NCBI GenBank assembly: GCA_001780275.1
Contig: MFGB01000006.1
Span: 1,756 to 65,755, forward strand
Length of the DNA stretch: 64,000 bases
Source: Candidatus Falkowbacteria bacterium RIFOXYA2_FULL_47_19
Lineage (GTDB): Bacteria; Patescibacteriota; Patescibacteriia; Patescibacteriales; UBA12075
Direction: 5' to 3'
The notes beneath the pieces were generated by a model. It ran no database searches. It saw only the letters and a program-made list of their open reading frames with translations, and was not told the origin of the DNA. The position numbers and the translations under genes are program-made. How positions within the stretch are numbered: the first letter of the stretch is position 1; every line of letters begins with the position of its first letter. Of this stretch, positions 9,024 to 45,823 are shown piece by piece.

Positions 9024-9391
9024 TTTATATTATTACAACAAGCTTTTATGTAAGAGTTTAATTTTTTATGCATTTTTTCAAGATTAGACAGCATTTCATT
9101 GTAGATCGGTTTTTGGATCAATTTTCTTTTTTGCAAAAGCAAAGTCCAATGTTTTGATTCTAAAAGCGAGCCGCGAGAATTATAATAAAACTTGATTTTA
9201 TCTTTATGATGATAACGTCCATAGCCCTCGGCGATGTTTGCTCCGACAGAATCAATGGCACAAATAAATTGATCTCCGATAATTTTTTTCGTCTGCCAAT
9301 CCATTTTTTCAAAAACGCTCCACGCTAAATCAGATGACTCAATTGCCAATTTATATATTTCCAAATTGCCTAATTTTATATAATCGGGCAT
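9020..9391 (-). CDS. Four-helix-bundle protein (23S rRNA intervening-sequence protein family)
   Basis: The sequence LEIYKLA......W.VF......K.IGDQ...A..SVGANIAEGYGRYH.KD.I.FY..SRGSL.ES is typical of the family. The track start at 9400 is a TTG; the first ATG is at 9389-9391. The TGA stop overlaps the giant gene's ATG (ATGA). Confidence 0.8.
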   Translation of the reverse strand: MPDYIKLGNLEIYKLAIESSDLAWSVFEKMDWQTKKIIGDQFICAIDSVGANIAEGYGRYHHKDKIKFYYNSRGSLLESKHWTLLLQKRKLIQKPIYNEMLSNLEKMHKKLNSYIKACCNNIK

Positions 9392-9418
9392 AATTTCCAA
9401 TTTCTAATTTTCAATTTC
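9392..9418. repeat. Right arm of the inverted repeat bracketing the four-helix-bundle gene
   Basis: The sequence aatttccaatttctaattttcaatttc is complementary to 8971-9005 and starts immediately upstream of the ATG. Confidence 0.7.
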
Positions 9419-9463
9419 GTGTATTTCAAAATGCTTATAGTTTTATATTTATAAACCTATTTT

Positions 9464-10042
9464 TTATAATGCATTCTTCTTCTCCACCACCCCCCAATCA
9501 AACACCCTCTCTGTATACGGCTGGCCATTCATGAGCTGTTCGCGTAAAAAGCCGGCAAAAATCTCGTCTTCCAGGCGGATGCGGTATAACCGCGGCCGGA
9601 GCGTTTCCGTTTTTGGTTTCGGACGGTATTCTCTCCCTTCTTGCTTAGCGCGCGTCTCTTCCTCCTCGGCCCTTTTCTTCTCCTCTTCGCTCCATTCTTT
9701 TTTCGGGATCTCCCGTTCATCGGCCATCGTAAGTTTTTGGACCTCGTCTTCGGTTAATTCCATTTTCAGGATAAGAAAGCTGATACGCTCCGTGGTGGAC
9801 CACTGCAAAATTTTTCCCTCTTCTTGTTTTTTCATGATCAGCACGTCACCGATCTTCATGTCGTTTTTAAGACTTTCGGCGCTATTATCGCCTTGATCGT
9901 GGGCGAATACGGCCACCTCATAAAGCGCTTTCGGCGCGGGTTTAAAAAATAAATTTATAAGCACCCCTAAAATAACAAGTCCGGCCAAAACGAATCCGGC
10001 AATAAGCGCTTGTTTTTTGGTTAAATGCTTGATTTTTATCAT
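9464..10042 (-). CDS. Hypothetical N-terminally membrane-anchored protein with a highly charged K/E-rich region
   Basis: The ORF has one TM segment (ALIAGFVLAGLVILGVLINLFF). The track start at 10084 is a TTG; the first ATG is at 10040-10042. Confidence 0.5.
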   Translation of the reverse strand: MIKIKHLTKKQALIAGFVLAGLVILGVLINLFFKPAPKALYEVAVFAHDQGDNSAESLKNDMKIGDVLIMKKQEEGKILQWSTTERISFLILKMELTEDEVQKLTMADEREIPKKEWSEEEKKRAEEEETRAKQEGREYRPKPKTETLRPRLYRIRLEDEIFAGFLREQLMNGQPYTERVFDWGVVEKKNAL

Positions 10043-13149: not shown

Positions 13150-14259
13150 TTATTCTATTTTAGGTTTATCTATGGCTAATACCTCGATCTTCGATTCCCC
13201 GTCCGTGATCTTAACGACATCCTTGTCTATTTTTCTGAATTCGATGTAAGCGTTATTATAATGGTTGACCGTCGCGGCCATGGATATGCCCAGCTTGCGC
13301 ATGAAATCGTCATAGGAGAGGAGATGCTTCCCGAGCTTTTCCACGTTAGCCCGGATCGTTTTGGCGCTTTCCTCTATCTGCAGCGCCCGGAGTCCCTGGA
13401 GAACGGTCTGGAGATAGGCCAAAAACGAAGTGGGCGAAACTATGATCACGTGCCGGTCGCGGAACGCGTATTCAATAAGGTCGCGGGTCGATACCTTTAC
13501 GGCCCCGACTTTGTTTATAAGGAGATCGTAATAGATGGCCTCTGAAGGAATGAACATAAAAGCGAAATCCATGGTTTTTTCGGACGGCTTTACGTATTTG
13601 CTCGTTTCATCGATCCGGGTTTTTAAGTCCTGTTTGAAGATCTTTTCCAGTTTTTCCCGTTCCGCCTTGTCGCTGGCGTTAAGTATCCGCTCGTAATTCT
13701 CGAGGCTGAATTTCGAATCGATCGGAATAACCTTGTCTTTGACGAATACGACGGCGTCCACGATCGAACCGTCTTTAAAGGGGTACTGCATCTGGTAAGA
13801 ATTGGGGGGCAGGACATTCTTAAGCGTTTCTTCAAGATAATACTCGCCCAACACCCCTCTCTGTTTGGGGTTTTTAAGTATATCCTGCAGATTCTGGAGC
13901 TGGCTGGAAAAATTGACCACCTGCTTGTTGGTCTCGTCAAGTTTGGTCAGGCGTTCTGTTACTGAAGATATAAGCTTGGCCGACTGGCCGCTTATCGATT
14001 GCACCGTTTTAATGGTTTGCCCGATCTGCTCCTGGGTACTGCGGTACTGCGCCTGCGTAGCCTGATGCGTTTCGGCCAGTTTCGCGTCTATCATCTGCCT
14101 AAGTTCCCGATTCTGCTCGGCCAGGATCGCGAGCCGCTCCATCATCGCCCCCTGTCTCTCTTCGCTCCCGGCACCGTCTTTCTTTTTAAGCATAAGATAT
14201 ATCGTTACCGCCAAGCCGGCTAAAAGAAGAAATAATAAGATAATAGTGAAAACCTGCAT
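13150..14259 (-). CDS. rmuC: DNA recombination protein RmuC
   Basis: N-terminal TM segment followed by a long coiled coil. The C-terminal RmuC nuclease-like core reads VDAVVF......IPIDSKF ... FAFMFIPSEAIY ... VIIVSPTSFLAYL. Confidence 0.85.
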   Translation of the reverse strand: MQVFTIILLFLLLAGLAVTIYLMLKKKDGAGSEERQGAMMERLAILAEQNRELRQMIDAKLAETHQATQAQYRSTQEQIGQTIKTVQSISGQSAKLISSVTERLTKLDETNKQVVNFSSQLQNLQDILKNPKQRGVLGEYYLEETLKNVLPPNSYQMQYPFKDGSIVDAVVFVKDKVIPIDSKFSLENYERILNASDKAEREKLEKIFKQDLKTRIDETSKYVKPSEKTMDFAFMFIPSEAIYYDLLINKVGAVKVSTRDLIEYAFRDRHVIIVSPTSFLAYLQTVLQGLRALQIEESAKTIRANVEKLGKHLLSYDDFMRKLGISMAATVNHYNNAYIEFRKIDKDVVKITDGESKIEVLAIDKPKIE

Positions 14260-14284
14260 ATTTATTGTATTAGTGTTTAATATC

Positions 14285-14312
14285 TAGTATTTAGCTGTCC
14301 GGCTAAATACTA
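14285..14312. promoter_or_regulatory. 11-bp inverted repeat in the divergent rmuC/uvrA promoter region
   Basis: tagtatttagc-N6-gctaaatacta, followed by ctaaatac/aaaatac word repeats. Confidence 0.3.
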
Positions 14313-14518
14313 AATACAAAATACTATATACCTTATATTACCAATTCTCTACGATTACCGCAACCGAACGCTAAAAATAGCCTAATTTCCATAATTTTTA
14401 TTTTGTAGCGCACCGCTCTTGCCACAACCCGATATTTAATGTATAATAAACTCCGTTTACAATCACATAATTCGCTATCGGCTGATTGGCGCTTATTTGC
14501 CGATCAGTATTATATTTT

Positions 14519-21176: not shown

Positions 21177-21668
21177 TCATAACTTTTCCAATATCTTCAA
21201 CTCCAACTTACCGCTCTCCGTCTCCCAAACCGCGAACGTCGCCTTCGAAAACGTCCCACCGAGCGTTCCAGGATTAACTACGTGCATCCGGCCCCGTTTT
21301 TCGATCCAGGGTTCATGGGTATGGCCGTAAAAAACAAGATCGCACGGGCCGTGCCGGAGGACATAATCGATTAAAAAGGGCTCATGGCACACACCGATCA
21401 TTTTGCCGTCCAGCTCGAAGCGCCCAATCCGTCCGTAATATTTTATATTCCCGTATTTTCCGACCCCTTCTTCATCGAAAAGGACGGCATTACCCTTCAC
21501 TAAACGGACAAAACCGGCGAAATTGCCGGCTAAAAATTCCAAAGTTTCATCGGTGGTCACGTCGCCGCAGCAAATAATCTCCTGAATATCGTTTTGACGG
21601 CACCAATCCAGGCACTTTTTTAGATTGGTTATATTATCATGTGTATCCGAAATAATAACGATTTTCAT
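21177..21668 (-). CDS. YfcE/MJ0936-family metallophosphoesterase
   Basis: Motifs found: ISDTHDN, CCGDV, GNAV and YGHTHEP. Confidence 0.8.
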   Translation of the reverse strand: MKIVIISDTHDNITNLKKCLDWCRQNDIQEIICCGDVTTDETLEFLAGNFAGFVRLVKGNAVLFDEEGVGKYGNIKYYGRIGRFELDGKMIGVCHEPFLIDYVLRHGPCDLVFYGHTHEPWIEKRGRMHVVNPGTLGGTFSKATFAVWETESGKLELKILEKL

Positions 21669-21678
21669 ATTATCCGCG

Positions 21679-22683
21679 TTAATTCATGATCTCTGGGTCC
21701 CTTTTTACCATCCTGAATATCACGACCTGGAACATTGTTGTCGTTACCAGCGTCGTTACTACCAGAGCTGAATATAGATTCGACGGTAATATGCCGACCG
21801 TCATGGCAATATAGGCAATGGCCAGCTCAACCGCTCCCTTGGCGTTCATCCCCCATCCCACGAGCCATAATTGGCTCCAACTCAGTCTGGTTATCGGCCT
21901 CGTCAAAAAAACCCCCAAAATCTGTCCGACGGTGGCGGTGGTAATTACCAGAACCAGAATAGGGATATCGACACGAAAGCTGCTTAGATCGAAATTCAGA
22001 CCAATATTAACGAATAAGAAGGGTACTATAGTAGCTAAAAGAATATTTTCCAGCCGCTTTAAGTGTCTATTTTCCCGGTTAAACAAACAGTGGACGAAAA
22101 TACCGATAAAAAATGCCGCCAACATCCCGCCCAAAAGCCAAACCTCCTCCATGGAAATATTGTTATCGGTAAAAAAATAAGCGACCAGGATCAACATAAA
22201 GACACCGATGATATCATTGATAATGCCGGTGCCCATAAGCAATGAACCAAGCCTGGTTCTTATTTTGCCCATCTGCATAAGCACCCTGGCCTTGACGGAT
22301 TCGGCCGTGATCCCGAAGCAAATACCCATAATAAGGGACGTTGAGATTTTAAATCCAAGAACGGTGAAAACAACGAAACCCAAAAAAAGGGAAGTAGCCA
22401 CCGTAAATAAGGTTATAACCAGCGCGCCCCGGCGTTCCTTGATGATCATATTCCATGAAACCTCGAAGCCGGCTAGAAACATAAGGGTAACAAGTCCTAT
22501 GTTGGCCAGACCGCCAAACATCTCTTTGTGTCCGGCCACCACCAATGACCTTATCGGGGGTATGGCCAATATCAATCCGGCCACGATCAAACCGATAACC
22601 GATGAAAAATGCAGCCGATTAGCTAATCGCGTAAAAACATAGGAGATTAAAATAATGAGAGTTATACTTAGAAAAAGGGGCAT
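21679..22683 (-). CDS. Cation:proton antiporter (Na+/H+ exchanger family) membrane protein
   Basis: About 10 TM segments with a CPA-type N-terminus (RL.FSSVIGLIVAGLIL). The track start at 22689 is a TTG; the first ATG is at 22681-22683. Confidence 0.65.
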   Translation of the reverse strand: MPLFLSITLIILISYVFTRLANRLHFSSVIGLIVAGLILAIPPIRSLVVAGHKEMFGGLANIGLVTLMFLAGFEVSWNMIIKERRGALVITLFTVATSLFLGFVVFTVLGFKISTSLIMGICFGITAESVKARVLMQMGKIRTRLGSLLMGTGIINDIIGVFMLILVAYFFTDNNISMEEVWLLGGMLAAFFIGIFVHCLFNRENRHLKRLENILLATIVPFLFVNIGLNFDLSSFRVDIPILVLVITTATVGQILGVFLTRPITRLSWSQLWLVGWGMNAKGAVELAIAYIAMTVGILPSNLYSALVVTTLVTTTMFQVVIFRMVKRDPEIMN

Positions 22684-22776
22684 AGACAATATATCTGGAC
22701 ATGCAAAAACCAGGTTCTGTGCATATTTTTAGGACCCGATAAAAAGACGCCAAAATTAATCTTCTTAAATAGAGGA

Positions 22777-23970: not shown

Positions 23971-24092
23971 AAATCCTAAGCTCTAAATTCTAAATCCTAA
24001 ATAAATCATAAATACCAAAATTCAAATATAGAAAAACGCTTTGAATTTAGATCTTTTGAATTTGTTTAGAATTTAGAGCTTAGAATTTAGGG
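23971..24092. repeat. Imperfect ~120-bp word-palindrome in an intergenic spacer (cctaagctctaaattctaaa / tttagaatttagagcttag)
   Basis: The arms were read directly; 19 of 20 nt are complementary in the core. It lies between co-directional genes. Confidence 0.75.
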
Positions 24093-25409: not shown

Positions 25410-25985
25410 CTACTTTCCGGCTCTGATCTTTATCTCATAATCGATCTGCTCGATCTTTCGAAGATTACCCCGAGCCTGGTCGTATTTCGTCCGGAGATAA
25501 GCGGTCATATCGAATTCAACAAGCTCCGCCATGATATCATTGACGATCTTCTTGATTTTTTCCACTTCTTCGGGGCGGCCGTCAGCCGCTTCGTTAACGG
25601 CCCGGCGGACCAATTCGCCGGTCAGATCGCAAATGCCCCCCAAATAGCTTTCATAGCTTAACCGCGCCTCTTTGAATCTGTCTATTTTCTTGCCGGCAAG
25701 CACCGTATAAAGCAGCTTGGCCTCCGCGTATTCTTCCGCGCCCGCCTTATAGGACCCTTCTTCGTTTATTCGTTCAAAACCGAATTTACCTTCGAGCTTC
25801 TTGATCATTTTTTCTATCTCGGCTAGGTCGGCTTTGGCTTTTTTCGCGTCTCCCCGATGCAGAGAAAAAATAACCCGCTTCGAATCGTGAAGGACGACAT
25901 TCGAAAGGCTGATTATCTGCCGCCTCTCCCCCTCGTGCTTGTTATACTCCTCTTTTAGCTCTTGAATGAATTTTTTGTTGATCAT
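25410..25985 (-). CDS. Translin-family protein
   Basis: 191 aa and all-helical. The motif YLGGICDLTGELVRRAV matches the translin/TRAX Y..G..DL.GEL.R signature. Confidence 0.6.
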   Translation of the reverse strand: MINKKFIQELKEEYNKHEGERRQIISLSNVVLHDSKRVIFSLHRGDAKKAKADLAEIEKMIKKLEGKFGFERINEEGSYKAGAEEYAEAKLLYTVLAGKKIDRFKEARLSYESYLGGICDLTGELVRRAVNEAADGRPEEVEKIKKIVNDIMAELVEFDMTAYLRTKYDQARGNLRKIEQIDYEIKIRAGK

Positions 25986-26079
25986 TGATTTAAACAGGCG
26001 TTAGACGTTAGCGGTTAGGCCCTAGCGGATCAACCCTAAAGCCTAAAACTCTAATGCCTAGAACCCTAATACTAAATTA
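25986..26079. repeat. Word-palindrome spacer built from TTAG(C/G)/CTAA words
   Basis: cgttagacgttagcggttaggccctagcgg ... ccctaaagcctaaaactctaatgcctagaaccctaatactaa. Confidence 0.6.
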
Positions 26080-29000
26080 TCATCTCGCCACCCGAAAAAC
26101 CTCCTCAACGGTCGTCTCTCCCTCTAAGGCCTTTAAGATGCCGTCCTGAACCATGAGCATGGCCCCGCTTTTTAGGGCCGTCTGCTCGATCTCGTAATCG
26201 GTAACCTCCCGCCCCTGGACGAGTTTTTGCATTTCCGGTGTCATTTCTATGATCTCGTAAAGTCCGATCCGGCCCTTGTAACCGATGCCGCCGCACTGTT
26301 CGCAGCCCCTGCCTTTATAGAACTTGAATACCGACGGAATTTTTACTCCGGTAACAGGCGAAATACTGTCTAAAACGCTTTTTACCTCTTTAAGAGTATC
26401 CGGCGATAGATCGGTCTCTTCCTTGCAGTTCTGGCAGATCCGACGTGCCAGCCTTTGTCCGATCGAACATTCGACCGAATTGGCGAGCATCTGCCGGTCA
26501 ATACCCAAGCCAACGAAACGGGGAAACGCGCCGGCCGCGCTATTGGCGTGTATGGTTGAAAGGACAAGGTGGCCGGTCATAGCCGATTCGATCGCGATCC
26601 TGGCGGTCTCTTCGTCGCGGATCTCGCCGATCATGATCACGTTCGGATTCTGCCGCAGGAGGGATTTTAAGGCGGCCGCGAAACTATAGCCTTTTTCCAC
26701 ATCTACCTGGGTCTGCATGATTCCTTCCATGTGGTATTCGATCGGATCTTCAACCGTAATAACTTTAATATCGGGATTATTCAGATGGTTAAGAATGCTA
26801 TAGAGCGTTGTTGTCTTGCCGCTGCCCGTCGGTCCGGTAGTTATGATTATACCCTTTGTTTTCCCCATGGACCGCAAAACCGGCTTTAAGGCGTAAGGCC
26901 GCATTCCCAGGTCGTCCATCTTAAGAGCCGAGGCCTGGCTCGTCAAAAGCCGGATAACCACGGTTTCCCCGTAACCGCCGGAAATTATCGAAACGCGGCA
27001 ATCCAGTTTTTCCCTGGTTTTGCTCCCCAATTGGATACTGAAACGGCCGTCCCAGGTGGCCCGCTTGACGTTAGTCGGAAAACCGGCCAATACCTTGACC
27101 TTTGAAATGAGCTGCAGGTGATATTCCTCCGGCAGCGCGGCCACTTCGTGCAGGATGCCGTCTATCCGGAAACGAATCTTAACTCCTGCTTCCGTAGGCT
27201 CGATATGGATATCGCCGGCACTGCTTTTGATCCCGGCCGCCATAATGACGGCGATCATCTGCCGGTTCGGGACATCGTTGATCCTGGCGTTTATATCGGA
27301 AAGATTCTTGGCGGCTTCTTCGCCCCATCCCATTTCCTCATCCGTAATTTCTATGCCGCGGCCGATAGTCTGGGAAATAACGATGTCATACAAAGCATCG
27401 ACATAATCGAATTTTCCGATTACCCGATAAATCTCCTCCAGGCTAGTTACTCCGCTTAAGCATTTTAGGATTCCGTCCTGCAGCATCGTGATCATGCCGT
27501 TCTCGATGGCTTGCTGCAGAATCTTAAAAGCCGGCTGGTTGTCCAGGGTCAACTGTTTAATATCGTCGGTCATGGTAAAAATCTCAAAAATTCCGATCCG
27601 GCCCTTATAGCTGATGCCTTTACACTCCTTGCATCCCGGTCCGGGCTTATAAAGGGTCGGAAATTTGTTCGGTATGCTCACTCCCGCGCGGGGAGATATG
27701 ACGGCCAGGATCTTTTTTACCCTTTCCCTTTCAGAGACGTCCAATTCGTGTTTTATCTTGCAGTGGTCGCAAAGTTTTCGCACGAGGCGCTGTCCGATAA
27801 CCGCGTTTATCGAGGGCATGAGAAAATAAGGCTTGATACCGATATCGATAAGGCGCGGGATCACGCCGGCGGCGTCATTGGTGTGAAGCGTCGACAGGAC
27901 CAAATGCCCGGTCAGGCTCGCCTGGACCGCGATCTCGGCGGTTTCCAGGTCGCGGATCTCGCCGACCATGACTATATCCGGATCCTGGCGGAGTATCGAA
28001 CGCAGACCGTTGGAAAAAGTATATTTCTTTTTTTCATCAACCTGGCTTTGGTTGATGCCCTCAAGGTGATATTCGATCGGATCTTCCAGGGTAACGATCT
28101 TCGTTCCCGGCTTGTTCAATACGTTTAAAATCGCATAAAGAGTGGTGGTTTTTCCGCTGCCGGTCGGTCCGGTCGTAAGAATAAGGCCGTTGGGTTTTTT
28201 AATTTCCCGTTCCAATACCTGGAAAGCGGAAAACGGTATTCCCAGATGATCAAAGGGAACCTTGATCTCACCGGACCGAAGCAGGCGCATAACCACGCTT
28301 TCGCCGTTCGAGGTGGGCAGGAAAGAGGTGCGCACCTCGACCTTCTCTTTGGACAACAATATGGTGTACCGGCCGTCCTGCGGCTTGTCGGCGATATTTA
28401 TCTTAACCCCGGCCAGAAGTTTCATGCGCGACACGATCTTTTTCCATTTTTCCTTGGCAATTTCGGCCGCGTTCTGTAAAACGCCGTCGATCCGTAGCCT
28501 GACCGCTATCCCGTTTTCTTCAGCTTCGATATGAACATCGCTGGCCTGGGTCTTTAACGCCGTGGCCAATACGAGAGTAACAACATCGCTGATGTTAACC
28601 TTGTTTATCTTTTCATTTAAGCTGCGGTAATCCTTTATGTCGGCATCGAACTTCTTAAGATCTTCTTCTCCGATCTCGACGCCTTTAAAAGCGGGAATTA
28701 GTTTAGGCAATATCCTGTATAGATCAAGGCCGTAAGCAAGGCTGCGCTCTGAAATAAGGTAGATCTTTCCCTGGCAAAAATATTTCCTGTCCAATTCGTC
28801 CAATAGTTCTCCGACTCCGGGATTTTCCGGTTCGGTGGTCGCTATCCTGATCTTTTCGCCGTCATAAAAAAAACAAACGGTTTTTAGCCGAGTGGCGTCT
28901 TCTATGTCTATAAGGGATAACGCGTCCGGGCTGATCGGAAATCCGAATAAGTTCACGTAGGGAATACCGGCCTGCGCCGCCTTCTGATTGGTCAGTCTTT

Positions 29001-29124
29001 CCATTTCTTTCATCATGATGTCGCGCTGTTTTTTTTCGAACTTTCCTTCAGGACTGTCTTCATCGACCGGGCGCCCCTGGGAAGAACTGATTAGATCTTC
29101 GATTGATGGTATGTCATCGGCCAT
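26080..29124 (-). CDS. Tandem-duplicated PilB/GspE-type secretion ATPase (N-terminal T2SSE_N domain plus two complete N2-ATPase units in one chain)
   Basis: 1014 aa. Two Walker A motifs GPTGSGKTTTLY have codons near 28143-28172 and 26815-26845. There are two Walker B motifs (DIVMVGEIRD, NVIMIGEIRD), two His boxes (TGHLVLST(L/I)H) and two tetracysteine clusters (CDHC..C.EC and CQNC..CEQC). Confidence 0.85.
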   Translation of the reverse strand: MADDIPSIEDLISSSQGRPVDEDSPEGKFEKKQRDIMMKEMERLTNQKAAQAGIPYVNLFGFPISPDALSLIDIEDATRLKTVCFFYDGEKIRIATTEPENPGVGELLDELDRKYFCQGKIYLISERSLAYGLDLYRILPKLIPAFKGVEIGEEDLKKFDADIKDYRSLNEKINKVNISDVVTLVLATALKTQASDVHIEAEENGIAVRLRIDGVLQNAAEIAKEKWKKIVSRMKLLAGVKINIADKPQDGRYTILLSKEKVEVRTSFLPTSNGESVVMRLLRSGEIKVPFDHLGIPFSAFQVLEREIKKPNGLILTTGPTGSGKTTTLYAILNVLNKPGTKIVTLEDPIEYHLEGINQSQVDEKKKYTFSNGLRSILRQDPDIVMVGEIRDLETAEIAVQASLTGHLVLSTLHTNDAAGVIPRLIDIGIKPYFLMPSINAVIGQRLVRKLCDHCKIKHELDVSERERVKKILAVISPRAGVSIPNKFPTLYKPGPGCKECKGISYKGRIGIFEIFTMTDDIKQLTLDNQPAFKILQQAIENGMITMLQDGILKCLSGVTSLEEIYRVIGKFDYVDALYDIVISQTIGRGIEITDEEMGWGEEAAKNLSDINARINDVPNRQMIAVIMAAGIKSSAGDIHIEPTEAGVKIRFRIDGILHEVAALPEEYHLQLISKVKVLAGFPTNVKRATWDGRFSIQLGSKTREKLDCRVSIISGGYGETVVIRLLTSQASALKMDDLGMRPYALKPVLRSMGKTKGIIITTGPTGSGKTTTLYSILNHLNNPDIKVITVEDPIEYHMEGIMQTQVDVEKGYSFAAALKSLLRQNPNVIMIGEIRDEETARIAIESAMTGHLVLSTIHANSAAGAFPRFVGLGIDRQMLANSVECSIGQRLARRICQNCKEETDLSPDTLKEVKSVLDSISPVTGVKIPSVFKFYKGRGCEQCGGIGYKGRIGLYEIIEMTPEMQKLVQGREVTDYEIEQTALKSGAMLMVQDGILKALEGETTVEEVFRVAR

Positions 29125-29222
29125 ATTTAGCGGTTAGCTGTTAGCTTATAGCTTTTAGGATCATAAAAACTAAACCCTATAAGCTAAAAGCTATAAGCTA
29201 AAACCCAGATTTGAACTGATAA
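29125..29222. repeat. Word-palindrome spacer (gcttatagcttttag / ctaaaagctataagc)
   Basis: Read directly. It begins with tttagcggttagc, related to gttagcggttagg at about 26007 on the other side of the ATPase gene. Confidence 0.65.
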
Positions 29223-30185
29223 CTATTTTCCGAATAGCCTCAAGATCTTGCTTTCCCCTCCCCGGCTGATAAGATCCAAAAATAAACCGGTCCAGGCTGA
29301 TATCTGGAAAGTGGCCAATATCGCGCCGCTCGCTATAATAACGAACAAAAGCAATATCAGGCCCGCCGCCACGATGAGCCATAAATTAAAAATAAGGGCA
29401 AATCTGGATAAAACGATCACTACGAACAAAAAGGGAATGGACAGGATCAAAAACAGCAGCAAGAGTCCTAACGCAAAAAGGAAGGTAATGAAAAATAACA
29501 TAAAGGCCATCTCCAGGCTGATGAGCCAGTTTTTCAGAAAAAGCCGCCAGCTTAAACGCAGGGAATCCAAAAACTTTTCATTTTTTATTACAATATAACA
29601 TATCGCGTATTTGGTAATAAAAGACAAAATAACCGCCAAAGGAATAAACACCATAAAGGCCGCTATCTGGTATGCGGCGGATAGCATGTCCTCTGCGCCG
29701 TCGAGAAGATATAAACCGAATAAGCTGAAAATACCGTAAATAACGATTTTAAGCAATAGATTAAGACCGACGACCGGCCAAAACTTGCTGATTCCGGAAT
29801 GAAGCCCGTTCGAGAAATCATGCTTTTTACCCGTGATGATCCTGGTCGTGTTGTTCACTAGCGCGGACTGTGAAATTATCGTCAGCCAAAATAGGAATAA
29901 GCTTAAAGCCAGGATGATCAAAAGAACCAGCAAAGACATAAACAGCGACAAATAATTATTACTGGATATTTGGCTTAAATTAGAAAATAATTTCCCGTTT
30001 AAAAAAATACCGCTAAGTATTTGAAGGCCGTACGGCAGACCCTGATCACTGTTAGTCCCCCGAAAAACGATTTCAAGATCTCCCCAGCCTCCTAGCAGGG
30101 CCGCAAAAAGGCCGAAAAACCATAAATACTTATGACGCCAGGTATTTTTCCAGGCCTGGCTAAGGATGTCGCGGTATAAAAACAT
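29223..30185 (-). CDS. Hypothetical polytopic membrane protein
   Basis: 320 aa with about 7 hydrophobic segments and no recognisable motif. Confidence 0.5.
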   Translation of the reverse strand: MFLYRDILSQAWKNTWRHKYLWFFGLFAALLGGWGDLEIVFRGTNSDQGLPYGLQILSGIFLNGKLFSNLSQISSNNYLSLFMSLLVLLIILALSLFLFWLTIISQSALVNNTTRIITGKKHDFSNGLHSGISKFWPVVGLNLLLKIVIYGIFSLFGLYLLDGAEDMLSAAYQIAAFMVFIPLAVILSFITKYAICYIVIKNEKFLDSLRLSWRLFLKNWLISLEMAFMLFFITFLFALGLLLLFLILSIPFLFVVIVLSRFALIFNLWLIVAAGLILLLFVIIASGAILATFQISAWTGLFLDLISRGGESKILRLFGK

Positions 30186-30346: not shown

Positions 30347-31378
30347 TTATTTATTCCATATATATCGGACGAACCGCCAGCCGTACTTAGCCGCCAGGAT
30401 CAACAGGAAGATGTAAAGTGCGTACTGGATAACGAGGAGAATTGCGGCTAAAAGACCGATGCTCATCGTCTGCAGGGTTATATTTACATCCCTTACGAAT
30501 TCCTTGACCGCCGCTTTCCAGGAATCTTTGATATTTTCACCGTCCACGAATTTATTCTCGTAAACGCTCAGATAAAAATAAGTATAGTCGAGCCGATCAA
30601 GCTGCTCGGCCTTTGCCCGAGACAATCGATCAAGCTGTTCATTGACGCTGATCCTGTCCTGCGACAGACGCTCAATGATCCTGATCTTGGAATCTATGAT
30701 CTTTGCCAGGCTTTCCGCGTCCCGGGCCTGGGTGGCTACCCTGGCGATCTCGTCATAGGAAGCGATCGCGTCGGAGAGCGTCCTTTCGATCGACTCTTTC
30801 TTCTTCGTGAGTATCTCGGTCTCACTGGTGAAGTCATCGATCTGACGCTTGATGGTATTAGTGTTCTCGACCAGGGTTTTCGGATCAAGTCCCTTGACCG
30901 TTTCCAGTATCTCGTCTTTATGCGAACGCTCCACCTTAAAATTATAATTGCAGCCGCGATCATATTCATTGGCGCTCTCAAAGATCACGTAATCCTTGGT
31001 CTTAAGGGCGGCCAGTGCCCCACAGGTCCCGTCCAGGTCGCGAGTCTCGATGGTTCCGCTATACTGGGTAACCTCATAATCCTCCGATCTATCGCCGGTT
31101 ACGGTCTCTTCATACGGAGGCATGGGCGCAATATTGCGGGCCGATAATTCCGGTGCGGCGGCGCCGAAGGATGCCTTGCTCCCGTCAGAATCATAGGCCA
31201 ACATGTTAAAGCCACCCGCGCTTTCTTCGAGGCCTTGCCGCGTTACCGATCCGAAAGAGGAGCCGATCACCCGAAAAACGAGAGTAAGCAATATGATTCC
31301 CAAAAGAGCCGCCAGTACCAGACCGGCTACTTTAAAAATAATGGCCGGCTTAAGATTGAGTTTGTTTAAAAATTCCAT
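30347..31378 (-). CDS. Membrane-anchored coiled-coil protein, DUF4349-like
   Basis: An N-terminal TM segment, a central coiled coil and a C-terminal TM pair match the general DUF4349 architecture as I recall it. Confidence 0.45.
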   Translation of the reverse strand: MEFLNKLNLKPAIIFKVAGLVLAALLGIILLTLVFRVIGSSFGSVTRQGLEESAGGFNMLAYDSDGSKASFGAAAPELSARNIAPMPPYEETVTGDRSEDYEVTQYSGTIETRDLDGTCGALAALKTKDYVIFESANEYDRGCNYNFKVERSHKDEILETVKGLDPKTLVENTNTIKRQIDDFTSETEILTKKKESIERTLSDAIASYDEIARVATQARDAESLAKIIDSKIRIIERLSQDRISVNEQLDRLSRAKAEQLDRLDYTYFYLSVYENKFVDGENIKDSWKAAVKEFVRDVNITLQTMSIGLLAAILLVIQYALYIFLLILAAKYGWRFVRYIWNK

Positions 31379-33012: not shown

Positions 33013-36000
33013 TTACTGTTTTTTAGCGTTAAGCGGCAAATAAACGTAAAAGGTCGTGCCCGCATTTTCTTTTGATTCGAACCAAATACGGCCGCCCAAT
33101 TCTTCGGTGAAAAGTTTGGCGATATATAAACCCAGTCCGGAGCTTTCTCCTTCGGTCCGGAGCATTTCATGGGCTTTATATAATTTTGTGAATACTTTCG
33201 GCTGCATCTCGGCCGGAATACCCGGACCGGTATCGGTTATGCCGATAACCACTCCGGAATCTTTAGCGGCGGCCGAAACGATGATCCGGCCTTTTTCGGG
33301 CGTATATTTAATGGCATTGGATATGAGATTCGAGAGGATGTTGCGGAAAATATTAGGATCGACCGTCATGGTGCCGGGAATATCATCGGCGTATTCCGCG
33401 ATGATACGCTGACTCTTCTTGGCGGCTAGTATACCGAGATTGCCGGCAACCTCCTTAAGAAATGGCCGGAGCTCGATATCTTTTGGATTATCCGTAAAGG
33501 TTCCCATTTCTATCCGAGAGATGTTTAAGAGTCGGTTGACCAGATCGGTCATGAAGCCGATATCTTTATAAGCACTTTTTAAATAATCAAGGCCATCCCC
33601 GTCGATTTTACCCTTAGAGCTTTTAAGCAGCAATTCCAGCGCGAAACCGGCGCTCGTTAACGGGGTGCGAAGCTGATGGGACGCCATGGACACGAATTCC
33701 GTTTTGGCTCGGTCGAATTTTTTAAGGTCGCTTATGTCGCGGGAAACGCCGTATACGGCTTCTACCTCCCCCTTTTTATTTCTGACCGGGGTCATGGTCT
33801 CAAGACAAACATCCCGATTCGCGCCCTCCGGGGTGTGTTCGATCTCGATCGTACTGGTTTCTCCCGCTAAGGCTTTTTCGAATGTTTTCCTGAATTTTCC
33901 CCGGTCTTTTTCGACCATGCATCCGAAATAATCCCAATCCGTCGCTTCTTCAATGCTTTTAAGGCCATGTTCTTCCAGGCCGGCTTTATTTATGTAAAGA
34001 AGCCTGCCCTCGGGATCGAAAAGCTTGATGCAGTCCGGAGAGGTTTCGGCCAAGGCTTTATATTTTTCCTCGCTTTGACGCAAAGCCTCCTGAATGCGCT
34101 TGCGCTCGGTAATATCCTGAGTCGTGCCGAAACCGCCCAAAAGCTCGCCTGCGGGATCGAATTCCAACTCGGCCTTTTCCCGGACCCACCTAATCTCGTT
34201 CCCGGAAACAATCCGATGCTCGACATCATAAGGAGCGCCCGCCAGGGCCGCCGTCCATTTTTCATCGACATATTTCCGGTCCGCCGGATGGACGGAGGCC
34301 AGAAAAGTTTCATAGGCCATGGGTTCGCCCGGCGGCACGCCGAAAATCCGATGATTCTCTTCCGACCAGACTAACTCGTTCTTTTTTGTATCAAGCCGCC
34401 AGCTGCCGATATGAGCCACCGCTTGAGCCCGGTTCAGGTCGCGCTGATTCTCTTTAAGCGCCATTTCCGCGGCTTTACGCCCCGTGATGTCGTTCATGGC
34501 CATGATCACCTGCCGCCGCCTGCCGGACACTACCGGATCGGCGTTCAATTCGAACCAAAAGTGCGCGGCCTTTCCGTTAATGACCAGGGTCGCTTCAACT
34601 TCGATGCCATGAACCGGCTCTCCGGTAGAAAGCGCCGATTCGAAGGTACGGCGCAGCGGACAATCCCGGCAAAATTCCATTTGTCCGCAAAGCGCGCCTT
34701 TTTTGCCGGCGGCATGAATACACCCAAGGGCGTTCCCGGGCCGGATTCCGGTTATAGCCGATCCTTTTTTATTGACCCATTCCAGTATCGTATCGTTGGC
34801 GCGGTCGATCGTGCTGTCTTCGTTCAACAGAAGCAAACCGACGTTAACGCCGTTAAAAATCGCTTTAAGATTGGTTTGCTCGATCGCTAATTTCCGTTCG
34901 GTTTTTTTAAGTTCCGTGATATCGCTGCCGTACAGATTTACGTGATTTTCGGCGGTATTCGGAGATAGAGAAAACAGGAATATTCTCCCCCGGCGATCCG
35001 TGAATTCGAAATTATTTTTTACATTCAGGTTTATGGTTCTGTCTACGGTCGCGCGCAAAGCCGCCGGCAACGCGCCGGTGCCGCCATCCTCTCCGGAAAT
35101 ACCAAGCATCTCCCGGCCCGGCTTGTTCGCATAAAGCACCTGTCCGTCGCCGGAGGCGCGTATGACCGGATTGGGATTATCCTCCGGAAACCGCGCCAGA
35201 TTACGCATTTCAGCTTCAATGCGTTTTTTTTCCGTAATATCTATAGACAACACGAATATGCCCTCTTCTGCCGGCTGAACGCTTAATTTAAACCAACCGC
35301 TATTGCCGCCGGGATAAACAAATTCATTTTCCAACGCTACCGGCTTCCTTTGCTCCATGCACTGACGCAAAACGGCGAATAACGCGGTCTTCTCGATGTC
35401 CGGATACGCCTCCATCATGGTCCTGCCGATCAAATCTTCTTTAACGGCGCGGCCGTGCAGAGCGGCCGTATTGTTGACATACAGATAACGCCAGTCAAAA
35501 CCTATGATCTGGCAGCCTTCCAGCATATTATCGAGCGTCCCCCGAAAACGCTCCTCGCTTTTTCGAAAAGCCCCTTCACTGGCCTTGAGCTTATTGAATA
35601 TTATGCTCTGCGGATCCCGCAAGCCGGTTATGACTATCGACCGGTAAATAAGATAAAAGGATATGATCTTGAAATAATGACCCAGCGCGTTGAATAAGCC
35701 GTACGGATCCTGGTAGAGAGTAAAGGACAGTTCTGATAAAACGGTAAACGACATGGAAGCTATAAGCAGACTAAAAACATTTTTTTGAAAATAACCGCGT
35801 TTTGCGGCGGTAAACATGATCGCCGCTGATAAAATAAAAGATATTACGTATTCACTTACGACCTTAAACGGCGTCAAGCCTGATCCGGTTATAAAAGCAT
35901 CAGGAAAATAAGAAGAAAAAATAGCGGCCGAAATCAAGATGAAAATGGCGCTAAAACCGGCAAAGGTCTTGCCTATGGAAATTTTCCCGGAAAGGAAAAG

Positions 36001-36417
36001 GGGCGCAGCCAGAAGCGCCAAAGCCTCCAGATAACGCGCCGCTATCCAAAGCTGGGTGGGGGTGTTGGAGTTAAAACCTTTGAATATGTTCATGCCGGAA
36101 TAAGATGAGGCGTGCAGAAGGTCAAGGCCGGCAATAAACAGATAGGCGATCCCCAACCAAACAAAATAGTGGTTATCGGCGTAACGCCTCGAGTGCCAAG
36201 CCAACACAAAGACCATACAGGCGATAATAACGCTGAAGATCTCCGCCATAAAATGGAACAAAAGATAGTTATAACGGCTGACGGAATAAAATACCGCTAA
36301 AATCAGGATTACGGAGAAAAACCATGGCAGGTTAAACTTTGTCTTGGCTTTTTCTTCCCCCATCCTGGTCCAATCTGCCAGAAAACCAAAATATTTGATC
36401 GAGTTAATTTTCTGCAT
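33013..36417 (-). CDS. Sensor histidine kinase: MASE3-like membrane domain, about five PAS domains, HisKA and HATPase_c
   Basis: The N-terminus has about 7 TM segments (NYLLFHFMAEIFSVIIA). PAS-like units recur. The H-box is SMASHQLRTPL, followed by N, G1 and G2 boxes (NLISNAIKYT, DTGPGI, GLGLYI). No response regulator gene is adjacent. Confidence 0.85.
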   Translation of the reverse strand: MQKINSIKYFGFLADWTRMGEEKAKTKFNLPWFFSVILILAVFYSVSRYNYLLFHFMAEIFSVIIACMVFVLAWHSRRYADNHYFVWLGIAYLFIAGLDLLHASSYSGMNIFKGFNSNTPTQLWIAARYLEALALLAAPLFLSGKISIGKTFAGFSAIFILISAAIFSSYFPDAFITGSGLTPFKVVSEYVISFILSAAIMFTAAKRGYFQKNVFSLLIASMSFTVLSELSFTLYQDPYGLFNALGHYFKIISFYLIYRSIVITGLRDPQSIIFNKLKASEGAFRKSEERFRGTLDNMLEGCQIIGFDWRYLYVNNTAALHGRAVKEDLIGRTMMEAYPDIEKTALFAVLRQCMEQRKPVALENEFVYPGGNSGWFKLSVQPAEEGIFVLSIDITEKKRIEAEMRNLARFPEDNPNPVIRASGDGQVLYANKPGREMLGISGEDGGTGALPAALRATVDRTINLNVKNNFEFTDRRGRIFLFSLSPNTAENHVNLYGSDITELKKTERKLAIEQTNLKAIFNGVNVGLLLLNEDSTIDRANDTILEWVNKKGSAITGIRPGNALGCIHAAGKKGALCGQMEFCRDCPLRRTFESALSTGEPVHGIEVEATLVINGKAAHFWFELNADPVVSGRRRQVIMAMNDITGRKAAEMALKENQRDLNRAQAVAHIGSWRLDTKKNELVWSEENHRIFGVPPGEPMAYETFLASVHPADRKYVDEKWTAALAGAPYDVEHRIVSGNEIRWVREKAELEFDPAGELLGGFGTTQDITERKRIQEALRQSEEKYKALAETSPDCIKLFDPEGRLLYINKAGLEEHGLKSIEEATDWDYFGCMVEKDRGKFRKTFEKALAGETSTIEIEHTPEGANRDVCLETMTPVRNKKGEVEAVYGVSRDISDLKKFDRAKTEFVSMASHQLRTPLTSAGFALELLLKSSKGKIDGDGLDYLKSAYKDIGFMTDLVNRLLNISRIEMGTFTDNPKDIELRPFLKEVAGNLGILAAKKSQRIIAEYADDIPGTMTVDPNIFRNILSNLISNAIKYTPEKGRIIVSAAAKDSGVVIGITDTGPGIPAEMQPKVFTKLYKAHEMLRTEGESSGLGLYIAKLFTEELGGRIWFESKENAGTTFYVYLPLNAKKQ

Positions 36418-37487: not shown

Positions 37488-37994
37488 TTAAAATTTTATA
37501 ATGGTTTTTTCGATAAACCCCTTCTTAAACTTTTTATACTTCCCGCCGTCCCCGCCGGCGAATTTAACGGCCTCCTTTTTTATCGCGGCATATTCTTTAA
37601 TAAGCTCCGGATGTTTTAACAAATAATCCCGAAAACCCACCATTTCTTTCCAACCCCGGCCCGGGAATTTTACTAAATGGATGTGGATTCTTCTTGTACC
37701 GCCTTTACGAGTATAATCCCGCCAAAAAAACAATCTTTCGGGATAGCTGGCTTCTTCACAGAATTCATAACCGGCCTCTTCGAGTTTATTTTTAGCCGTT
37801 TTAAAATTCGACGCTCCGACCACGATATCTATTATTCCTTTTCCGCCCAAACCAGGAACAGCGGTCGATCCTACGTGCTCGATCCTGGCCGCAGGGTTCA
37901 GTATCCCGGTCAGTTTCTCCTTTTCCGACATGAAAAAAGCCGGATATGCCGGGTTGTATTTCCTGAAAACATATTTTTTCATTTCAGCTGTCAT
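37488..37994 (-). CDS. GrpB-family protein
   Basis: Contains HVGSTAVPGLGGKGIIDI and IHIHLV motifs. Its ATG overlaps the stop of the upstream gene (ATGA). Confidence 0.75.
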   Translation of the reverse strand: MTAEMKKYVFRKYNPAYPAFFMSEKEKLTGILNPAARIEHVGSTAVPGLGGKGIIDIVVGASNFKTAKNKLEEAGYEFCEEASYPERLFFWRDYTRKGGTRRIHIHLVKFPGRGWKEMVGFRDYLLKHPELIKEYAAIKKEAVKFAGGDGGKYKKFKKGFIEKTIIKF

Positions 37995-44680: not shown

Positions 44681-45823
44681 ATGCTGACGCAAGAGCAACA
44701 AATTTTCGAACAAATTAAAAAGGCCAAAAGCGTCCTGATCACTTTCGGCAAAACCTGGAACGGTGATGCGGTCGCGTCATCCCTGGCCTTTTATCTGCTG
44801 CTTAAAAAACTCGGCAAGAGCGTTGAGATCGCGGCGGAAAACTTCGATCAGGGAAAATCCTATTCTTTTCTTCCCGCTTACGAGGCCATCCGGCACTCCC
44901 TGGATAATCTGAGGAAATTCATCGTTTCCCTGGATATTACGAACGCTAAGGTCGGAGCCATAAAATACAAAGTTGAGGAAAACGTCCTTAACTTCATTAT
45001 TTCCCCCAAAGAGGGTTTTTTTACGCATGACGATATAAAATCCCGTTCGGGTGATTTTAAATATGACCTGGTGATCGTCCTTGATACTCCCGACCTTGAA
45101 TCCCTGGGGGAAATTTACGATAAAGACACGGAATTTTTCTATCAAGTACCGGTAATAAATATTGCCCACAGCTCAAATAACGAAGAATTCGGCCAAATTA
45201 ACTTAATAGAACTTACCGCCATCGCCACAGCCGAGATCCTGTTTAACCTGTTCTCCGGATACTCCCGCGACCTCATCGACGAGGATATCGCCACCTGCCT
45301 CTTGGCCGGCATTATCTCGAAAACCCGCAGCTTCAAAACCCAGAATATCACGCCGCAATCCTTATCGATATCTTCGGAACTTATTTCCTTGGGAGCCAGG
45401 CGCGAAGAGATCGTAAATCAACTTTACCGCTCCCGGTCCCTGGATGTCCTTAAGCTCTGGGGTCGGGTATTGGCCAGGTTGACGGCCGCCATGGATAATT
45501 CCCTTGTTTGGTCGGTTTTGACCGAGATGGATTTCCAGAAAACCAATACCGGAGAAAATGACCTTCCCGAGGTCATAGATGAGCTCATAATCAACATCCC
45601 CCAGGCTAAGATCGTTCTCCTTATTTATGAATACGGGGCTGAAAAAAATACGCAGGCCATGATCTACTCGATAAAAAACATCAATTCCCTCAATCTGGTA
45701 AAAAAATTCTCGCCCGTCGGAACTAAAAATTTCGTCCGAATTAATATCCCGAAACCAGTTTCCGAGGCGGAAAAGGAAATCGTCGATCACATTAAGGAAA
45801 ATTTAAATAAACTATCGATATAA
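44681..45823 (+). CDS. DHH/DHHA1 phosphoesterase-like (NrnA-like) protein with degenerate catalytic motifs
   Basis: The NrnA-like layout is present (NGDAVASSLAFYLLLKKLGK). The DHH position reads AHS (VINIAHSSNNEEFG), and I see no GGGH motif in the C-terminal domain. Confidence 0.6.
   Translation: MLTQEQQIFEQIKKAKSVLITFGKTWNGDAVASSLAFYLLLKKLGKSVEIAAENFDQGKSYSFLPAYEAIRHSLDNLRKFIVSLDITNAKVGAIKYKVEENVLNFIISPKEGFFTHDDIKSRSGDFKYDLVIVLDTPDLESLGEIYDKDTEFFYQVPVINIAHSSNNEEFGQINLIELTAIATAEILFNLFSGYSRDLIDEDIATCLLAGIISKTRSFKTQNITPQSLSISSELISLGARREEIVNQLYRSRSLDVLKLWGRVLARLTAAMDNSLVWSVLTEMDFQKTNTGENDLPEVIDELIINIPQAKIVLLIYEYGAEKNTQAMIYSIKNINSLNLVKKFSPVGTKNFVRINIPKPVSEAEKEIVDHIKENLNKLSI

Follow-up and report, generated by a model that had tools for sequence, protein, structure and literature searches.

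Motors of the PilB/GspE/PilT type are studied as rings of six identical subunits, and the locus described here raises the question of how such a ring would be built, and what it would serve, if each subunit bore two ATPase units. The gene in question lies in a 64,000-nucleotide (nt) window, by which we mean the whole stretch of DNA analysed, from Candidatus Falkowbacteria bacterium RIFOXYA2_FULL_47_19 (contig MFGB01000006.1, positions 1,756 to 65,755), and its product of 1014 amino acids (aa) carries two complete units of the PilB/GspE class in one chain. Our reading, held with about even confidence, is that the protein forms a hexameric motor of this class whose core of ~442 codons was duplicated within an orphan PilB-like lineage, that the ring is likely composed of three chains, and that the motor acts with a co-encoded membrane protein. 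The gene is laid out as follows.

26080–29124, minus strand: double PilB/GspE-type ATPase gene, 1014 aa, an N1 domain followed by units A and B (single open reading frame, ORF; Pfam, NCBIfam).
28741–29124, minus strand: N1 domain, T2SSE_N/MshEN-like, residues 1–128, one per chain (Pfam and alignment with a single-unit ortholog).
27412–28740, minus strand: unit A, residues ~129–571, with connector, N2 domain, ATPase domain and tetracysteine cluster (residue mapping, fold).
28147–28170, minus strand: Walker A motif of unit A.
26083–27411, minus strand: unit B, residues ~572–1014, with connector helix, N2 domain, ATPase domain and tetracysteine cluster (residue mapping).
26812–26835, minus strand: Walker A motif of unit B.

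A preliminary description of this DNA had proposed a one-chain tandem of two complete PilB/GspE-type units and had named domain parsing as a check. The parsing agrees with the proposal: Pfam returns two full-length T2SSE matches (751 bits together) and a borderline MshEN/T2SSE_N match at residues 53–129 (23.9 bits against a cut-off of 23.1), and the GspE and PilB models of NCBIfam each match two stretches of the protein. The N1 domain aligns from its first residue with the N-terminus of the single-unit ortholog at locus L092. Each unit contains the Walker A motif GPTGSGKT (residues 319–326 and 764–771), the Asp box EDPIEY, a GEIRD sequence in the Walker B region (at 388 and 833) and the His box TGHLV (at 405 and 850). 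The two Walker A motifs are 445 codons apart, a small correction to the figure of about 443 first given. Paired CxxC motifs at 452/498 in unit A and 897/941 in unit B supply the tetracysteine zinc motifs (C452, C455, C498 and C501; C897, C900, C941 and C944).

The units are 45% identical to each other over 426 aa (E-value 1e-134). Scored separately against GspE/PilB, unit A obtains 471/463 bits and unit B 429/417 bits, far above their PilT scores of only 191 and 164, and both are for this reason assigned to the extension type. A fusion of PilB with PilT is excluded by the same figures. The equivalog models for the type IV-A pilus assembly ATPase PilB (TIGR02538) and for the type II secretion system's GspE (TIGR02533) were also compared. 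The whole protein passes their cut-offs, with 871.8 and 888.9 bits, solely by summing its two units; each half alone falls below the required 675.65 (PilB) and 630.25 (GspE).

A tandem of this kind might be an artefact, in which an error of sequencing or assembly, or a chimeric contig, had run two adjacent pilB-like genes together. The preliminary description had accordingly held that a stop or frameshift between the halves would undo its proposal, and had pointed to related genomes as the place to look for the fusion. At least 120 clusters of homologs (992–1029 aa, 62–99% identity, full coverage) are present in a large protein database, and those that carry names are GspE/PulE proteins assigned to Patescibacteria, Falkowbacteria or Parcubacteria. 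Among 1.84 billion cluster representatives, searched exhaustively, 15 have two full units (978–1047 aa, 38–63% identity); single-unit proteins come next. Scanning genome contigs with the single protein gave two loci, and the window is 98% identical to a Candidatus Falkowbacteria metagenome-assembled genome (locus L003). With a profile specific to the junction, at least 575 metagenome stretches were found to encode it. Across the 80 junction-profile loci, the earlier loci and the window, all 78 genes not cut by a contig end consist of one uninterrupted ORF with two full units (median 1004 aa), and these derive from independent samples and assemblers. The sole broken copy, L052, lies on a contig of 1579 nt at 1.5x coverage, and nothing else speaks for mis-joining. 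The junction helix is, moreover, among the conserved segments, and halves that are just 45% identical could not have been produced by repeat collapse. Because these comparative data show an intact junction we consider an artefact refuted, its probability being practically negligible. The double architecture is abundant across Patescibacteria, a point missing from the preliminary description.

Whether both units can work is a matter of their catalytic residues. Mechanistic residues of the Geobacter metallireducens PilB include R257, R271 and R286 of the N2 domain, T327 of Walker A, the Mg-coordinating E357 of the Asp box and the catalytic E395 (PMC5424180). We aligned each unit, residue by residue, to the chain of this protein in 5TSG. 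The full mapped set of R257, R271, R286, T327, K331, E357, E395, T411, H413, H420 and R455 corresponds, in the same order, to R252, R265, R280, T321, K325, E351, E389, T405, H407, H414 and R449 in unit A, and to R694, R710, R725, T766, K770, E796, E834, T850, H852, H859 and R894 in unit B. Both units thus contain the Walker A lysine, the Asp-box glutamate, the atypical Walker B with its catalytic glutamate, the threonine and two histidines of the His box and the three N2-domain arginines. Both also bear the two marks that set the PilB/GspE clade apart from PilT, namely the tetracysteine zinc motif and the inter-chain arginine (R449, R894). All 22 mapped positions, 11 per unit, are invariant in an alignment of 63 family sequences, and the mechanistic residues proved invariant across 120 family sequences as well. 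Among the double representatives the set is nearly fully retained in both units of 14 of 15, with isolated substitutions in a few; in unit B of P0132 two of the four cysteines of the zinc cluster are gone. The earlier statement that neither half is degenerate therefore stands, and a half lacking catalytic residues, which would have counted against it, was looked for and not encountered.

The pattern of conservation points the same way. Of 420 aligned repeat positions, 112 are conserved and identical in the two units, 17 are conserved but different, 75 are conserved in A only and 41 in B only, which indicates that both units are under purifying selection, each with constraints of its own. The connector between the units measures 68 aa in 76 of 92 sequences, with Walker A motifs 440–445 codons apart, and holds a conserved helix, KFDYxDxLYDIVIS, which is counted with unit B. 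On these alignments both units look catalytically competent.

One unit might nonetheless be a regulatory pseudo-ATPase, binding nucleotide without hydrolysing it, in a manner comparable to the alternation of alpha and beta in the F1-ATPase. Unit B does change more quickly (63% identity between the window protein and P0107, against 71% for unit A, with the same trend in other pairs), and its per-segment conservation is lower (0.71–0.76 against 0.78–0.82). Furthermore, unit A of P0135, an independent double, no longer has the lysine of Walker A or the glutamate of the Asp box. Within the family itself neither unit varies in any of its catalytic residues, the catalytic glutamate and the two histidines of the His box included, and we regard a pseudo-ATPase as improbable.

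The preliminary description had called the arrangement a duplication, and relatives with a single unit bear this out. In the window protein the repeat runs from 147 to 568 in unit A and from 589 to 1012 in unit B, with weaker similarity reaching back to ~130 and ~574; this register makes the duplicated segment the connector, the N2 domain and the ATPase domain, ~442 codons in all. Locus L092, on a contig of 1.27 Mb, presents the order membrane protein, ATPase, Translin, PGA_cap, Trp/Tyr permease, Metallophos_2 and AMMECR1, which equals that of the window from 30185 down to 20600 save for one additional window gene, a Na/H exchanger at 21679–22689. Its ATPase has one unit and 571 aa, and is 53% identical to residues 1–568 of the window protein, extreme N-terminus included, and 45% identical to unit B. 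Further single-unit relatives, P0136 (584 aa, L088) and P0144 (578 aa, L093/L094), have a homologous membrane protein directly upstream. From these syntenic single-unit orthologs we infer that the double form arose by internal duplication in an orphan PilB-like lineage; the single-unit loci may be either ancestral or secondary losses.

In three single-unit loci (L092, 2111–7654; L093, 1624–4795; L088, 5412–7235) FtsH precedes the membrane-ATPase pair on the same strand, and an S1-domain protein also lies upstream on that strand in two of them. Double-unit loci have aminoacyl-tRNA synthetase genes, on the opposite strand, in the place of these FtsH and S1 genes.

A phylogeny of the halves had been proposed as a means of dating the event. 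By neighbour-joining, units A and B of the window family are never sisters (0 of 200 bootstraps), and unit B of the window protein groups most often with the B units of other doubles. The duplication is old. The trees do not separate one duplication from several, the deep nodes being weak (separate A and B clades receive 60 and 89 of 200 bootstraps). In three proteins the two units are sisters within the same chain: P0129 (74% identity, 200/200 bootstraps), P0130 (55%, 185/200) and P0135 (44%, 183/200). Such pairs imply independent duplications or gene conversion, and for P0129 conversion is plausible because its TsaE/PolA neighbourhood is common to other Paceibacteria-type doubles.

P0135 (1047 aa; L089, 10001–13144) is a separate, independent tandem. 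Its neighbourhood, with sulfatases and CBM9, does not resemble that of the candidate phyla radiation, and its start abuts a gene pair for an extracytoplasmic function sigma factor and an anti-sigma factor. The protein begins with soluble T2SSF (PilC-like) repeats; its unit A, with T for the Walker A lysine and Q for the Asp-box glutamate, is degenerate and appears inactive, and its second unit is intact. The closest single-unit relative adjoins a PilC gene and itself has relatives in Omnitrophota and Paenibacillus. A homology search with P0139 placed its relatives in Omnitrophota, Paenibacillus and Nitrospirae.

If the motor descends from PilB, what does it act upon? The window gene has the following co-directional neighbours.

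29223–30185, minus strand: polytopic membrane protein, 320 aa, weak DUF7544 match, immediately upstream and a conserved partner (Pfam, neighbour counts).
25410–25985, minus strand: Translin-family protein, 191 aa, immediately downstream (Pfam Translin, E-value 5.5e-21).
21177–21668, minus strand: Metallophos_2 phosphoesterase, 163 aa, at position +5 in the window (Pfam).

The membrane protein, of a family with a typical length of ~326 aa, occupies position -1 on the strand of the ATPase in 72 of 80 loci, and the Translin-family protein, again encoded in the direction of the ATPase, is at +1 in 68 of 77. A Metallophos_2 family (fam2) is present in 62 loci, in 53 of them at +2 and on the same strand; the window copy is displaced to +5. 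In related loci the outer neighbours are encoded on the other strand. The membrane-protein and ATPase genes are separated by a median of 15 nt and the ATPase and Translin genes by a median of 11 nt, and distances this short make the cluster operon-like. The ATPase is, in short, part of a conserved operon-like cluster with a membrane protein and a Translin-like protein, which the preliminary description did not mention.

Database homologs of the membrane protein are unannotated and restricted to Falkowbacteria, Parcubacteria and other Patescibacteria. The model built from them is a confident all-helical membrane fold (predicted template modelling score, pTM, 0.79), and the protein does not look like PilC or GspF; a search of the PDB yielded no significant relative, the best match being choline-transporter-like protein 1 (E-value 0.41). 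For the Translin neighbour, the best PDB sequence matches are archaeal NEQ131 and AfTRAX. Defence-system models (PADLOC) gave generic P-loop matches only.

Canonical pilus loci of Saccharibacteria combine pilB with pilC, pilM/N/O, pilT, pilD and pilins (PMC12206443). A Pfam search of 39 further ORFs and a scan for pilin motifs revealed no pilC, pilM, pilT, prepilin peptidase or pilin in the 64-kb window. Within 10 kb, no related locus contains genes for a pilC/gspF platform, pilM/gspL or pilins, and none of 85 non-redundant loci has a second T2SSE gene; nor did 1.39 Mb of sequence around 93 sources yield a pilin-like ORF. That no pilC, pilM or pilin gene is adjacent, as first reported, thus extends from the window to its relatives.

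These observations bear on the simplest alternative, an ordinary type IV or competence pilus extension ATPase which happens to be encoded away from the pil genes, its membrane-protein and Translin neighbours reflecting mere synteny. Both units do belong to the PilB/GspE class and have the tetracysteine cluster typical of extension ATPases, and pilus machinery is reported as conserved across most classes of Patescibacteria (PMC12206443). Acting in trans, the protein may serve ordinary pilus extension. The sampled clade is, in addition, broadly syntenic, with outer genes kept in ~60% of loci. Finally, the Paceibacteria-type doubles at L006, L007 and L090 have no adjoining membrane partner, so the partnership is not universal; their neighbours are DHH, TsaE and PolA genes, and RuvB follows downstream. 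These last three points weigh against our reading of a motor that acts with the membrane protein. Set against the alternative are the lack of pilC, pilM, pilT or pilin genes in the 1.39 Mb surveyed, the failure of either half to reach the PilB or GspE equivalog cut-off by itself, and gaps of 3–15 nt, which suggest co-translation. The membrane-ATPase pair also outlives rearrangements, the window, L088, L092 and L093 sharing little else. On balance we find an ordinary pilus motor possible but rather doubtful.

The Paceibacteria-type doubles themselves (L006, 8710–13057; L007, 8823–13030; L090, 2684–6213; L005, 10001–14613) have a DHH-family phosphoesterase directly upstream or TsaE adjoining, PolA near and RuvB a few genes downstream. 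The window has a DHH homolog at 44681–45823, 34% identical to that of L006 and 15 kb distant.

For the motor that we prefer, acting with its membrane partner, the remaining question is the arrangement of the units in the ring. The AlphaFold monomer is confident for each domain (mean predicted local distance difference test, pLDDT, 83.4) and has the N2-domain and ATPase-domain fold of the superfamily. Foldseek matches it to core chains of PilB and PilF with template modelling (TM) scores of 0.90–0.92, normalised to the target and without specifying the aligned unit. Whether compared by fold or by sequence, no solved chain in the PDB extends over more than about one third of the model. The relative placement of A and B is uncertain (pTM 0.49), and the model is accordingly silent on their packing, which is a further reservation about our reading. 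The subunit differs from those of homohexamers of single-ATPase subunits in bearing two ATPase units.

The orthologs with one unit guide our proposal. They would have to form ordinary homohexamers, and they adjoin the same membrane protein; for this reason the double form would most likely fill the same six-position ring with three chains in the order A-B-A-B-A-B. The preliminary description had likewise suggested a ring of three chains with A and B alternating. In such a ring the number of N1 domains would be three and not six, and opposite positions would always be held by one A and one B. For PilB a C2-symmetric cycle of ATP turnover has been proposed, in which opposite subunits are in the same state simultaneously (PMC5424180). 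Under that cycle, the opposition of A and B would demand the full catalytic cycle from both unit types and hence competence of both, which fits the complete retention of catalytic residues. A three-chain pseudo-hexamer would be plausible. The motor would probably act on or with the co-encoded membrane protein, the best candidate for its target, and not on a PilC platform.

Natural tandem ATPases often stack rings, as p97, ClpB and KaiC do, and this too tells against a ring of three chains. Six double chains might form a ring of A units and a coaxial ring of B units in the style of type II AAA+ proteins or KaiC, with twelve ATP sites and six N1 domains. As a general rule tandem duplication of ring ATPases commonly leads to stacked rings; the unit-specific conserved positions and the fixed-length connector with its helix would suit a junction between rings, and the monomer model leaves the placement of the units free. 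Yet the orthologs with one unit, which have the same operon-like surroundings, demonstrate that a single ring is enough for the task, and none of the solved structures found for the superfamily is stacked. The pore of a PilB-type ring is, moreover, thought to grip the platform protein (PMC5424180), which would leave a second ring with no obvious substrate. Weighing these points, we consider stacked rings, the chief rival to the three-chain ring, rather unlikely.

A bolder version of our proposal can be put forward with considerable reserve. The DUF7544-like protein and the PilB-derived ATPase, single or double, would constitute a new Patescibacteria-specific, filament-independent membrane machine, which may handle nucleic acids with the co-transcribed Translin-like and Metallophos_2 proteins, and in which the double form would sit as a three-chain pseudo-hexamer on a three-fold membrane partner. 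We give this fuller scheme low credence. Its nucleic-acid component is a weak guess, made because Translin, Metallophos_2, DHH, RuvB, PolA and UvrA recur nearby.

The ATPase gene of the window is also bounded by unusual spacers.

29125–29222, minus strand: 98-nt spacer between the membrane-protein gene and the ATPase gene, a hairpin with TTAG/CTAA words (RNA fold -32.2 kcal/mol, z -5.2).
25986–26079, minus strand: 94-nt spacer between the ATPase gene and the Translin gene, a hairpin (RNA fold -30.8 kcal/mol, z -3.1).

The preliminary description had noted related word repeats on both sides of the gene. The repeats are present, the 11-mer TTAGCGGTTAG occurring exactly at 26008 and 29127 in arms of the two separate hairpins; its significance against chance is weak, given that 5 of 100 shuffles yield at least 3 matches with at most 1 mismatch. 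The upstream hairpin spacer ends right at the ATPase start codon. A third spacer with abundant TTAG/CTAA words lies at 23976–24075, and possibly another at 14215–14314. The corresponding gaps of relatives are mostly 3–44 nt long and lack these words, and the upstream hairpin is shared only by the near-identical L003, where the stem is kept and the loop changed. The spacers are lineage-specific intergenic hairpins inside an operon-like array and do not speak for mobility. That the TTAGCGGTTAG copies close off a mobile unit as its terminal repeats is a reading we rejected, because more than 68 loci keep the order membrane protein, ATPase, Translin without such spacers. Rfam returned only sub-threshold microRNA-like matches for the hairpins, which might serve as attenuators within the operon, affect RNA stability or represent inserted small palindromic repeats.

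In L003 the spacer between the ATPase and Translin genes (9043–9617) is 575 nt long and contains a possible extra ORF, bracketed by inverted GTAAGAA/TTCTTAC word repeats. We would guess from its sequence that this ORF belongs to the GrpB family; the window has a GrpB gene elsewhere, at 37488–37994. The arrangement suggests gene-sized insertions at hairpin spacers.

Other genes of the window deserve brief mention. Just upstream of the membrane partner, a 343-aa protein (30347–31378, minus strand) is hydrophobic in segments at either end, matches nothing in Pfam and is present only in the window and L003 among related loci. A 2097-aa ORF (2730–9023, minus strand) includes a right-handed beta-helix region, and the neighbouring protein of 646 aa (59–1999) bears repeats of two kinds, fibronectin type III and purple acid phosphatase N-terminal-like; both are probably large surface proteins. 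A sensor histidine kinase of 1134 aa (33013–36417, minus strand), in which a MASE3 membrane sensor domain is combined with several PAS domains, is large for a signalling protein of so reduced a genome.

Several consequences would follow if the double form works as we propose. In a three-chain motor the neighbours of each subunit would be set, and there would be half as many N1 domains to bind partners. Rings of identical sites make the proposed rotary C2 mechanism difficult to test, and diverged units would allow each class of site to be mutated separately. The separation from pilus genes and the pairing with a membrane protein point to a possible new use of the motor, in a group, the Patescibacteria, whose nutrient uptake and interaction with host cells are poorly understood. 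Double sequences are public under generic names as GspE/PulE family proteins; the literature searched, in full text and together with a review of Patescibacteria, described neither a tandem PilB/GspE nor a pairing with DUF7544-like and Translin proteins.

Among known systems the closest in fold are PilB and GspE themselves (G. metallireducens PilB, 5TSG and 5TSH; Vibrio EpsE, 1P9R and 4KSR). Each unit is 41–43% identical to these and shares their Walker A, Asp-box glutamate, Walker B, His box, arginines and tetracysteine cluster, and the double chain, like theirs, has one N-terminal N1 domain. The solved chains, in contrast, contain a single unit, and the double is not encoded with pilC/gspF, pilM, pilT or pilins and is paired instead with a DUF7544-like membrane protein. 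The single-unit orphan ATPases (L092, P0136, P0144) share this operon-like context, with the DUF7544-like protein at -1, and differ in having one unit. PilF of Thermus thermophilus (913 aa; 6F8L, 5IT5) is likewise a long motor of the PilB family, but only a single ATPase core is matched; we take its additional length to consist of repeated N-terminal GSPII-type domains, whereas in the double it is the ATPase core that is repeated. Outside the superfamily, type II AAA+ proteins (p97, NSF, ClpB) and KaiC have two ATPase modules per chain in six-fold stacked rings, and engineered ClpX subunits remain functional when covalently linked, so that linking ring neighbours is compatible with function. 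These are other ATPase families, and the likeness is one of design and not of membership. Acinetobacter baylyi is reported to employ two extension motors, PilB and TfpB, in pilus synthesis (PMC8213720). That system would offer a precedent for more than one extension-type ATPase, but its motors, as described there, are separate proteins; here one chain joins two units that have diverged, and pilus genes are not linked. Beside these systems, the gene of the window stands as a natural covalent double of a secretion-superfamily motor, set in an orphan module which is possibly a machine of its own.

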